Shown here in pieces: positions 16,823 to 19,409 of a DNA stretch of 40,549 bases (position 1 is the stretch's first letter; each line of letters starts with the position of its first letter). Position numbers and translations under genes: made by a program. The DNA comes from Escherichia coli. GTDB taxonomy: Bacteria > Pseudomonadota > Gammaproteobacteria > Enterobacterales > Enterobacteriaceae. The notes beneath the pieces are model-generated. The model saw nothing but the letters and a program-made list of their open reading frames with translations, made no database searches and was not told where the DNA came from. The stretch is from the NCBI RefSeq assembly GCF_003334765.1, contig NZ_QOWT01000035.1, one strand, 5' to 3'.

Positions 16823-16908
16823 TTCAGATCTCATCCATACTGGGTAGTGGCGAATAAATCTCATTTGCCTCACCTGCTATGCAGAACATCATCCGAAAAG
16901 GAGGAACT

Positions 16909-17919
16909 ATGAAGGCTGCAGTTGTTACGAAGGATCATCATGTTGACGTTACGTATAAAACACTGCGCTCACTGAAACATGGCGAAGCCCTGCTGAAAAT
17001 GGAGTGTTGTGGTGTATGTCATACCGATCTTCATGTTAAGAATGGCGATTTTGGTGACAAAACCGGCGTAATTCTGGGCCATGAAGGCATCGGTGTGGTG
17101 GCAGAAGTGGGTCCAGGTGTCACCTCATTAAAACCAGGCGATCGTGCCAGCGTGGCGTGGTTCTACGAAGGATGCGGTCATTGCGAATACTGTAACAGTG
17201 GTAACGAAACGCTCTGCCGTTCAGTTAAAAATGCCGGATACAGCGTTGATGGCGGGATGGCGGAAGAGTGCATCGTGGTCGCCGATTACGCGGTAAAAGT
17301 GCCAGATGGTCTGGACTCGGCGGCGGCCAGCAGCATTACCTGTGCGGGAGTCACCACCTACAAAGCCGTTAAGCTGTCAAAAATTCGTCCAGGGCAGTGG
17401 ATTGCTATCTACGGTCTTGGCGGTCTGGGTAACCTCGCCCTGCAATACGCGAAGAATGTCTTTAACGCCAAAGTGATCGCCATTGATGTCAATGATGAGC
17501 AGTTAAAACTGGCAACCGAAATGGGCGCAGATTTAGCGATTAACTCACACACCGAAGACGCCGCCAAAATTGTGCAGGAGAAAACTGGTGGCGCTCACGC
17601 TGCGGTGGTAACAGCGGTAGCTAAAGCTGCGTTTAACTCGGCAGTTGATGCTGTCCGTGCAGGCGGTCGTGTTGTGGCTGTCGGTCTACCGCCGGAGTCT
17701 ATGAGCCTGGATATCCCACGTCTTGTGCTGGATGGTATTGAAGTGGTCGGTTCGCTGGTCGGCACGCGCCAGGATTTAACTGAAGCCTTCCAGTTTGCCG
17801 CCGAAGGTAAAGTGGTGCCGAAAGTCGCCCTGCGTCCGTTAGCGGACATCAACACCATCTTTACTGAGATGGAAGAAGGCAAAATCCGTGGCCGCATGGT
17901 GATTGATTTCCGTCACTAA
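16909..17919 (+). CDS. adhP: zinc-dependent alcohol dehydrogenase, 336 aa
   Basis: ORF track gives 16879..17919; start placed at the ATG preceded by GGAGGAAC giving [11 protein letters not shown]...; zinc-ligand motifs (GHEGIG, C-x2-C-x2-C) visible. Confidence 0.93.
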
Positions 17920-18064
17920 GAGGCCTTTGCTGCGACTGCCATGTTCGGGTCGCAGCATCGCACACTCTCCAACATGAAATGGCTAAATGGATTATTGTTG
18001 CGTAGGAAGGAACAATAATGATAGTGTTCCCAGTGAAGAAACGCTACTGAGAGTAAAGACACTA

Positions 18065-18349
18065 ATGAAAATGGCCAATCATCCCCGCCCGGGGGACATT
18101 ATTCAGGAATCACTGGACGAACTTAATGTCAGCCTGCGCGAGTTTGCCAGAGCAATGGAAATTGCTCCCTCAACGGCAAGCCGATTGCTGACAGGAAAAG
18201 CAGCTTTGACGCCAGAAATGGCGATTAAACTTTCCGTGGTGATCGGCAGTTCGCCGCAAATGTGGCTGAATCTGCAAAACGCCTGGAGTCTGGCAGAGGC
18301 AGAAAAAACAGTGGATGTGTCGCGATTACGCCGTCTGGTTACGCAATAA
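18065..18349 (+). CDS. yddM: HigA-like XRE-family HTH protein (putative orphan antitoxin), 94 aa
   Basis: ORF track gives a 120-aa ORF from 17987; the recalled YddM starts at the internal ATG ([17 protein letters not shown]...); helix-turn-helix region ([27 protein letters not shown]) visible. Confidence 0.75.
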
Positions 18350-18737
18350 AAAAATGGCACTTTATAAAGCGCCATTTAGAACTGATGACAAACGCAACAT
18401 TGCCTGATGCGCTACGCTTATCAGGCCTACACGTTCACTGCAATCTATTGGATTTGAAGGGTTTTCATGCCGGATAAGGCGTTCACGCCGCATCCGGCAT
18501 GAACAAAGCCTACGTTGTCTACAATATAAAAATGACGCCTTTTACAGCGCCATTTGAAACTGATGACAAACGCAACATTGCCTGATGCGCTACGCTTATC
18601 AGGCCTACACGTTCACTGCAATCTATTGGATTTGAAGGGTTTTCATGCCGGATAAGGCGTTCACGCCGCATCCGGCATGAACAAAGCCTACGTTGTCTAC
18701 AATATGAAAATGGCGCCTTTTACAGCGCCATTTTCAG
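18350..18737. repeat. tandem array (~2.2 copies of a ~178-bp unit) containing REP palindromic units and terminator-like hairpins
   Basis: Directly visible: 18350-18527 and 18528-18705 are near-identical, and a third partial copy of the AAAATGGCGCC...GCGCCATTTT hairpin lies at 18706-18735. Each unit carries two REP-type palindromes (GCCTGATGCGCTACGCTTATCAGGCCTAC and GCCGGATAAGGCGTTCACGCCGCATCCGGCA). Confidence 0.9.
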
Positions 18738-18755: not shown

Positions 18756-19409
18756 TTATATCCCTTCTTCACTCTCTTTTTTCGCTTCTGCCTTCTCGAT
18801 TTCACGATACCAGCGCGGATGGTGTTTCTTCGCCCAGCGACGACTTACCTTCCCTTCGATCATCCCTTTAATCGATCCTTTCACCCAAAATGCCATATAC
18901 ATATGGATCAGGATGGCGTGGATCAGGATGATACCCGCAGCCGCGTGGATCAGCAGGCTGTAGCGAACAACCTGCATCGGGAAGTACTGCGCAAAGTACG
19001 GACGCCAGATAATCACCCCGGTCACCAGCAGCACGAAAATCATGCTCATGATCGACCAGAACATCATCTTTTGCCCGGCGTTGTACTTACCGACATCCGC
19101 CACTTTATGCTCATTGCCTTTCAATACTTCGACAATGTTCAACAGCCACGGAATATCTTTCTTATCCGGGATGTTGTGATGCACAAAACGCACAAACATA
19201 AACATCAGTGCGACGAAAATCGCAATGCCGAAGAACGGGTGCAAAATGCGTCCCATCTGCGGCGTACCGAAGGTTTGCGTCAGCCATTGCAGCGTCGGGA
19301 AGAAGAACGAAATCCCGGACAGCGCCACCAGGAAGAAGCAAATCACCACGGTCCAGTGACAGGCGCGATCAATAAATTTGGTGCGCACAATCATTTTCGA
19401 CTTACTCAT
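18756..19409 (-). CDS. fdnI: formate dehydrogenase-N gamma subunit (cytochrome b), 217 aa
   Basis: ORF track gives 231 aa from 19451; start placed at [12 protein letters not shown]... to give the recalled 217 aa; overlaps the fdnH end by 8 nt. Confidence 0.9.

Follow-up and report, generated by a model that had tools for sequence, protein, structure and literature searches.

In the 40,549-nt stretch of E. coli DNA analysed here (the window), yddM lies within the species' maeA-adhP-yddM-fdnIHG neighbourhood (Table 1). From the end of the adhP stop codon at 17919 to the yddM ATG at 18065 there is a spacer of 145 bp (17920..18064). These coordinates agree with an earlier note on this DNA, which had described a yddM that follows adhP at this distance with no toxin gene between them, and a tblastn search with the cognate HigB toxin likewise gave no match. 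On the other side, fdnI is the synteny anchor by which the higB-yddM loci in Citrobacter, Pluralibacter, and others are tied to this one. The upstream neighbour adhP has two in-frame ATGs, the annotated start at 16909 (336 aa) and another at 16879 (346 aa).

Table 1. Features of the adhP-yddM-fdnI region, in positions of the window.
Feature	Position	Strand	Basis
adhP (alcohol dehydrogenase), upstream neighbour	16909..17919	+	ORF track
Hairpin after adhP (GCTGCGAC-N12-GTCGCAGC), in all alleles	17929..17956	+	sequence, alignments
34-nt segment found only in toxin-less alleles, in place of ~87 nt of the toxin-bearing allele	17957..17990	+	alignments
Old higB promoter with candidate operator core, directly 5' of yddM in this allele	17991..18043	+	conservation; binding inferred
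Half-site TTGTT	17995-17999	+	conservation
Conserved GTTGCG box	17997-18002	+	conservation
Half-site GGAACA	18009-18014	+	conservation
Half-site TGTTCC	18025-18030	+	conservation
Half-site GAAACG	18038-18043	+	conservation
Leader and deletion scar; higB ORF of other genomes absent	18044..18064	+	alignments
Weak Shine-Dalgarno GAGAG	18049-18053	+	sequence
yddM, HigA-family antitoxin / XRE HTH, 94 aa	18065..18349	+	profile and structure matches
HTH_3 match in YddM, residues 14-65	18104-18259	+	Pfam
178-bp unit, first tandem copy	18344-18521		REP-like palindromes
178-bp unit, second tandem copy	18522-18699		REP-like palindromes
fdnI, convergent downstream neighbour	18756..19409	-	ORF track

The REP repeats that had been reported 3' of yddM are indeed there, as a 178-bp unit present twice (18344..18699 together). 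Both units hold the palindromes GCCTGATGCG...CTTATCAGGC and GCCGGATAAGGCG...CGCATCCGGC, which place them with REP/BIME elements, and a hairpin, AAATGGCGC...GCGCCATTT, of which a third copy stands at 18700-18733. These hairpins score as bidirectional terminator-like sites, and naRNA4, a REP-derived Rfam family, gave only sub-threshold matches in the repeats. The repeat part (686-732) of our 801-bp query also matches unrelated sites, and the query found a median of 27 places per genome. The copy number of the unit differs between strains (none, two, and apparently one more); in strains without it, yddM ends about 50 nt from fdnI. At three loci in our set (L005, L006, and L054), a gene for an IS200/IS605-family transposase replaces the units between yddM and fdnI.

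YddM had been assigned to the HigA type, and a profile search had been named as a way to refute this. The search returned strong HigA membership and the assignment survives: NCBIfam TIGR02607 (antidote_HigA; "HigA family addiction module antitoxin") matches with 93.7 bits, above its curated equivalog cutoff of 47.7, over residues 3-81 of the protein and positions 1-80 of the 81 in the profile. The Pfam HTH_3 match (5.1e-9) identifies an XRE/Cro-type helix-turn-helix domain. Among solved structures, the "antitoxin HigA" of E. coli CFT073 (PDB 2ICP/2ICT) is identical to YddM in 94 of 94 residues, the next best relatives being the Proteus vulgaris (Rts1) HigA structures at ~1e-18, and the NCBI annotation at the locus reads "yddM: HigA family addiction module antitoxin". 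DNA binding has been reported as well, since a ChIP-exo study in K-12 MG1655 counted YddM as a confirmed DNA binder and obtained a motif for it, the motifs given for its confirmed proteins being palindromic (PMC6237786). With respect to the start of the gene, the in-frame ATG at 17987 is present as the earlier note had it, gives a 120-aa ORF, and lies 5' of the conserved promoter/operator core. All homologue matches begin at residue 1 (MKMANHP) and the crystallised protein has 94 aa; therefore, we take the 94-aa form as the gene.

When 5,426 complete E. coli genomes were searched with the locus by megablast, many strains turned out to have a gene annotated as "RelE/ParE family toxin" in the space between adhP and yddM. 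In strains SCU-105, Z0117EC0005, and NRG857c, for example, this space holds a 279-bp ORF of 92 aa whose stop codon overlaps the yddM ATG. Its product matches Pfam PF05015 (HigB-like_toxin) at 1.5e-17 and P. vulgaris HigB (4MCT) at 8e-32, conserves the LHPL histidine and the C-terminal EDYH, and is ~56% identical to the plasmid Rts1-type HigB. When the window is aligned to toxin-bearing loci, the entire toxin ORF is missing from it. With the cognate HigB as a tblastn query (E<=1e-3), no HigB-like sequence was found in the whole 40.5-kb window, and no higB remnant in the spacer. A HigB (PF05015) gene immediately upstream of yddM is thus absent from the window and present at the orthologous locus in 1,329 E. 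coli genomes and at most related loci that we retrieved from other species. Because the toxin gene is absent, the window holds a remnant and not a complete type II toxin-antitoxin module (higBA). The description of yddM as an orphan HigA-type antitoxin gene with no adjoining toxin therefore stands, refined to the remnant of a higB-yddM operon.

To call the change a simple deletion is a simplification, since the spacer has diverged far beyond its flanks and its immediate ancestor was not among the sampled genomes. The toxin-less spacer differs from the toxin-bearing promoter and leader by ~35-40%, whereas the flanking genes differ by ~3%, and a chimeric 233-nt query, in which the window-type leader was joined to higB as in such an ancestor, matched no genome end to end. 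Global alignments of the tail of the spacer (18038..18064) with the type I leader and with the 3' end of higB were no better than those of shuffled sequences (z ~1). A TAATGAA/TGATGAA microhomology was our first guess for the end points, and was set aside, as alignments of this quality cannot fix end points to the nucleotide.

The ancestry of the pair was traced by searching one genome per bacterial species with YddM, followed by tblastn of HigB, AdhP, and FdnI against the returned loci. An intact higB directly 5' of the yddM homologue, and by fdnI, was found in E. albertii, two divergent (cryptic) Escherichia, about a dozen Citrobacter species, Pluralibacter, an Enterobacter sp., and "Enterobacteriaceae bacterium 89", and adhP also adjoins the pair in Escherichia and some Citrobacter. 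Cedecea, Buttiauxella, Erwinia, and Chimaeribacter have the pair too, and even the YddM homologues of distant MAGs, with 32-41% identity, have a HigB homologue upstream. The toxin has also decayed independently at a few other loci, as in Citrobacter sp. FP75, where it has an internal deletion, and in C. portucalensis and Xenorhabdus, where the matches to it are split or partial. The comparison with genomes that pair a yddM homologue with higB, which had been proposed as a check, accordingly found that roughly one in four E. coli genomes, as well as related genera, have the operon intact at the adhP/fdnI site. Given the pair at the same site in outgroups, and the pairing of distant homologues, the higB-yddM pair is old, ancestral, and vertically inherited, and the window is a derived deletion allele.

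Within E. coli, the 5,426 complete genomes show how the alleles are distributed. DNA of higB is present in 1,329, at most once per genome and only at the adhP/fdnI site, and the window-type spacer (coverage of at least 80%) in 2,837; a B1-type toxin-less spacer variant, typical of O111:H8 and O103, occurs at >=99% identity in ~1,060. The same leader and junction are common to all toxin-less alleles, which suggests one old deletion and subsequent diversification. Among 29 sampled full-length higB rows, 12 have a 1-nt deletion (a 278-nt form of the gene), and in the ST131-type genome Ecol_AZ159 (L004 701-978) higB with a 1-nt deletion is annotated as a frameshifted pseudogene beside an intact yddM. 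The toxin has been lost or inactivated at least two independent times in E. coli, by deletion and, in ST131-type genomes, by frameshift. Minor derivatives include a 29-bp deletion (L005 and L006) that takes the -10/palindrome out of the yddM promoter core and leaves yddM in place, and a Tn3-family insertion that truncates yddM. In E. coli O157:H7 TR01 (L003 602-746) the 145-bp spacer is a mosaic of a toxin-type flank, a toxin-less core, and the last 46 nt of higB, and could reflect either true recombination or an error of assembly. We had considered it as a second widespread deletion type and rejected this, as the allele is a singleton (1/5,426) and other apparent O157-type genomes have the window-type spacer.

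The promoter/operator core between adhP and yddM ends 21 nt from the yddM start codon. We compared the promoters of higB at 20 toxin-bearing loci, drawn from at least six genera. GTTGCG, AACA, GTTCC, and GGAAC vary little or not at all among them, with the sequence around these elements drifting; the window keeps this core. The half-sites of these loci form overlapping inverted repeats, GGAACA-N10-TGTTCC-N7-GGAACA. A consensus scan called no canonical sigma-70 promoter in the spacer, so the promoter is assigned by cross-species conservation only. The fourth half-site is GGAAC in all 20 aligned toxin-bearing loci and in K-12 MG1655, and is changed in the window by G18039A, the sole spacer difference from MG1655 and one seen in only 3 of the 5,426 genomes. 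Given this change, and given that yddM is kept despite the 29-bp promoter deletion, autoregulation at 17991..18043 is not indispensable. In addition, the T-run CCTGTTTTG that follows the adhP hairpin in toxin-bearing alleles is replaced by ATCGCACAC in the window, and therefore read-through from adhP into yddM may be part of yddM expression. We also observed that positions 17991-18019 (compare L048 493-521) form a perfect 9-bp inverted repeat, ATTATTGTT/AACAATAAT, around an 11-nt loop. In B1-type strains (O111:H8, O103; ~1,060 genomes) this loop is exactly inverted, from GCGTAGGAAGG to CCTTCCTACGC, rewriting the GTTGCG box, which looks like a quasi-palindrome template-switch mutation.

Taken together, we consider it highly probable that yddM is the leftover antitoxin of an ancestral chromosomal toxin-first higB-higA operon from which the 279-bp higB has been deleted; its product is most likely an autorepressing dimer that could still neutralise HigB. 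The deletion would have put yddM directly behind the old higB promoter/operator. There, a YddM dimer may bind, through its XRE-type helix-turn-helix, the inverted TGTT/AACA half-sites over its own promoter and so repress itself. Such repression would need no toxin, since in the Rts1 system HigA alone represses Phig via two inverted-repeat operators over the -35/-10 elements and binds more tightly than HigB-HigA does (PMC12266136); by this analogy, autorepression at the half-sites is the most likely activity of YddM. If higB were to re-enter the cell, YddM would presumably still bind and neutralise it, because the protein is identical to the one encoded beside HigB in toxin-bearing strains: the same YddM is found in the window, K-12, O111:H8, ST131, SCU-105, NRG857c, and E. 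albertii. More tentatively, the orphan could have been kept, intact and with its protein sequence unchanged, while the toxin-less E. coli lineages radiated because it does a job independent of the toxin, either as a transcription factor beyond its own promoter or as standing "anti-addiction" immunity in case higB is acquired again, from toxin-bearing E. coli or from plasmids. We regard this as possible, with hints of a wider regulatory role coming from ChIP-exo sites, from genetic interactions with stress genes, and from an uncomplemented Keio mutant hypersensitive to epetraborole.

Orphan antitoxins are commonly read as remnants of degraded toxin-antitoxin modules (PMC7354431), and yddM might be a functionless relic of this kind that has been slowly decaying since the toxin was lost. 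Regulatory decay is indeed seen, in G18039A, in the 29-bp promoter deletion of some strains, and in the 11-bp inversion of B1-type alleles. The coding sequence, however, has been kept: yddM is present at >=80% of its length in 5,409 of the 5,426 genomes (99.7%), as against 1,329 for higB, none of 18 sampled alleles is frameshifted, and for the 17 genomes below that length the sole disrupted copy fetched was a transposon insertion. In 10 toxin-less alleles, non-synonymous diversity is 0.0038 and synonymous diversity 0.060 (on the order of the species-wide value), giving a pN/pS of ~0.06, and the 10 synonymous changes against 4 non-synonymous ones have a binomial P = 3e-4 under neutrality in this small sample. 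The orphan yddM is retained under purifying selection, and even a sample of this size argues against free decay, which makes a neutral relic improbable. An origin outside any toxin-antitoxin pair, with the toxin gene of other genomes as a later insertion, has nothing in its favour but the look of the window itself. It is contradicted by the pair at the same site in E. albertii, Citrobacter, and Pluralibacter, by the paired distant homologues, and by a toxin-bearing promoter architecture that is conserved across genera, and is almost certainly wrong. The stand-alone repressor suggested in the earlier note is thus the better description of the present state of yddM, but not of its origin, as relatives hold the higB-yddM pair.

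The same note had also suggested that YddM may act on a toxin encoded elsewhere, and for this we found no support. Encounters with a HigB-type toxin in the same genome are plausible, as HigB homologues of ~56% identity are common on enterobacterial plasmids (99 Escherichia plasmid records). However, the plasmid HigA partners are only ~41-43% identical to YddM, which argues against routine cross-neutralisation, and no HigB-like sequence was found elsewhere in the window, the higB DNA of E. coli genomes being confined to the single adhP/fdnI site. Furthermore, the K-12 HigB/YgjN structures were retrieved by neither YddM nor the cognate HigB in a sequence search of the structure database, and in a published TBLASTN survey K-12 and HS had neither parE-2 nor parE-1, the other PF05015 toxin gene (PMC7232551). 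A trans-acting antitoxin is therefore very unlikely. A small toxin ORF or RNA that escaped annotation in the spacer or the repeats on either side of yddM is less credible still. The proposed small-ORF check of both strands of 17920..18064 did find three ORFs, of 25 aa (+), 48 aa (-), and 28 aa (-). None of them is HigB-like, and none is preserved among toxin-less alleles, the first two being lost or truncated in other such alleles and the 28-aa antisense ORF changing freely. The other refuting condition named in the note, a conserved toxin ORF adjoining yddM, is thus not borne out in the window. An Rfam scan of the spacer matched no family, and the strains without the REP unit, with their ~50 nt between yddM and fdnI, speak against a toxin in the repeats.

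The antitoxin-only state of K-12 at the yddM locus is already known, annotated, and published (PMC7232551). To this, our analysis adds a wider view of how deep the pair reaches in the phylogeny, the frequencies of the alleles, the purifying selection on the orphan, and the conserved operator-like half-sites. As a matter of annotation hygiene, yddM is better read as a "HigA antitoxin, cognate HigB deleted in this lineage" than as an uncharacterised Xre regulator, and this reading would account for the few targets found in K-12 studies that treat YddM as an orphan transcription factor. Within one species, the locus offers a clean natural case of asymmetric toxin-antitoxin decay, and possibly a test case for ideas of anti-addiction and co-option.

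The HigB-HigA pair of the P. vulgaris plasmid Rts1 is the founding member of the family. The yddM locus resembles it in the toxin-first order of the pair, in the ~56% identity of the lost HigB, and in the match of YddM residues 7-87 to Rts1 HigA (1.3e-18), and the pair of inverted repeats in the window matches the Rts1 two-operator arrangement. In contrast to Rts1, the locus in the window is chromosomal, vertically inherited, and toxin-less, and its operator sequences differ; the Rts1 proteins show no binding to E. coli hig DNA (PMC12266136). P. aeruginosa HigA and P. putida GraA share the fold of YddM and are antitoxins that repress by themselves, the r.m.s.d. of 2ICP superposed on PaHigA being 1.2 A (PMC6987408). 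Regulation by PaHigA extends to genes beyond its operon, and unlike YddM both of these antitoxins still have their toxins; for YddM, targets beyond its own operon are only hinted at by ChIP-exo. K-12 itself has a second HigA-like XRE protein, YbaQ (PDB 2EBY), a homologue of YddM at 5.6e-9. YbaQ differs in being a distant relative of 113 aa encoded at another locus, and some pathogenic strains encode its PF05015 toxin (parE-1), which K-12 lacks (PMC7232551).

The closest comparison is with the locus itself in other E. coli. Bustamante and Vidal (2020) named the pair of the AIEC strain NRG857c TA20 (ParE-2/HigA-2), and reported that HS and K-12 encode only the antitoxin there (PMC7232551); we checked its position, and it lies between adhP and fdnI. 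A reciprocal pattern has been described at a second site, as K-12 and HS keep a complete higBA (ygjNM) at fadH-rlmG and only the antitoxin at the yddM site, whereas CFT073 and NRG857c keep the toxin at the yddM site and only an orphan higA at fadH-rlmG (PMC7232551). The HigA of CFT073 (2ICP/2ICT) is the HigA-2 of this TA20 pair, with the same 94 of 94 residues as YddM and the same adhP-fdnI site. In CFT073 and NRG857c the gene for the 92-aa toxin is present upstream, whereas in the window it has been deleted and the promoter and leader have strongly diverged.
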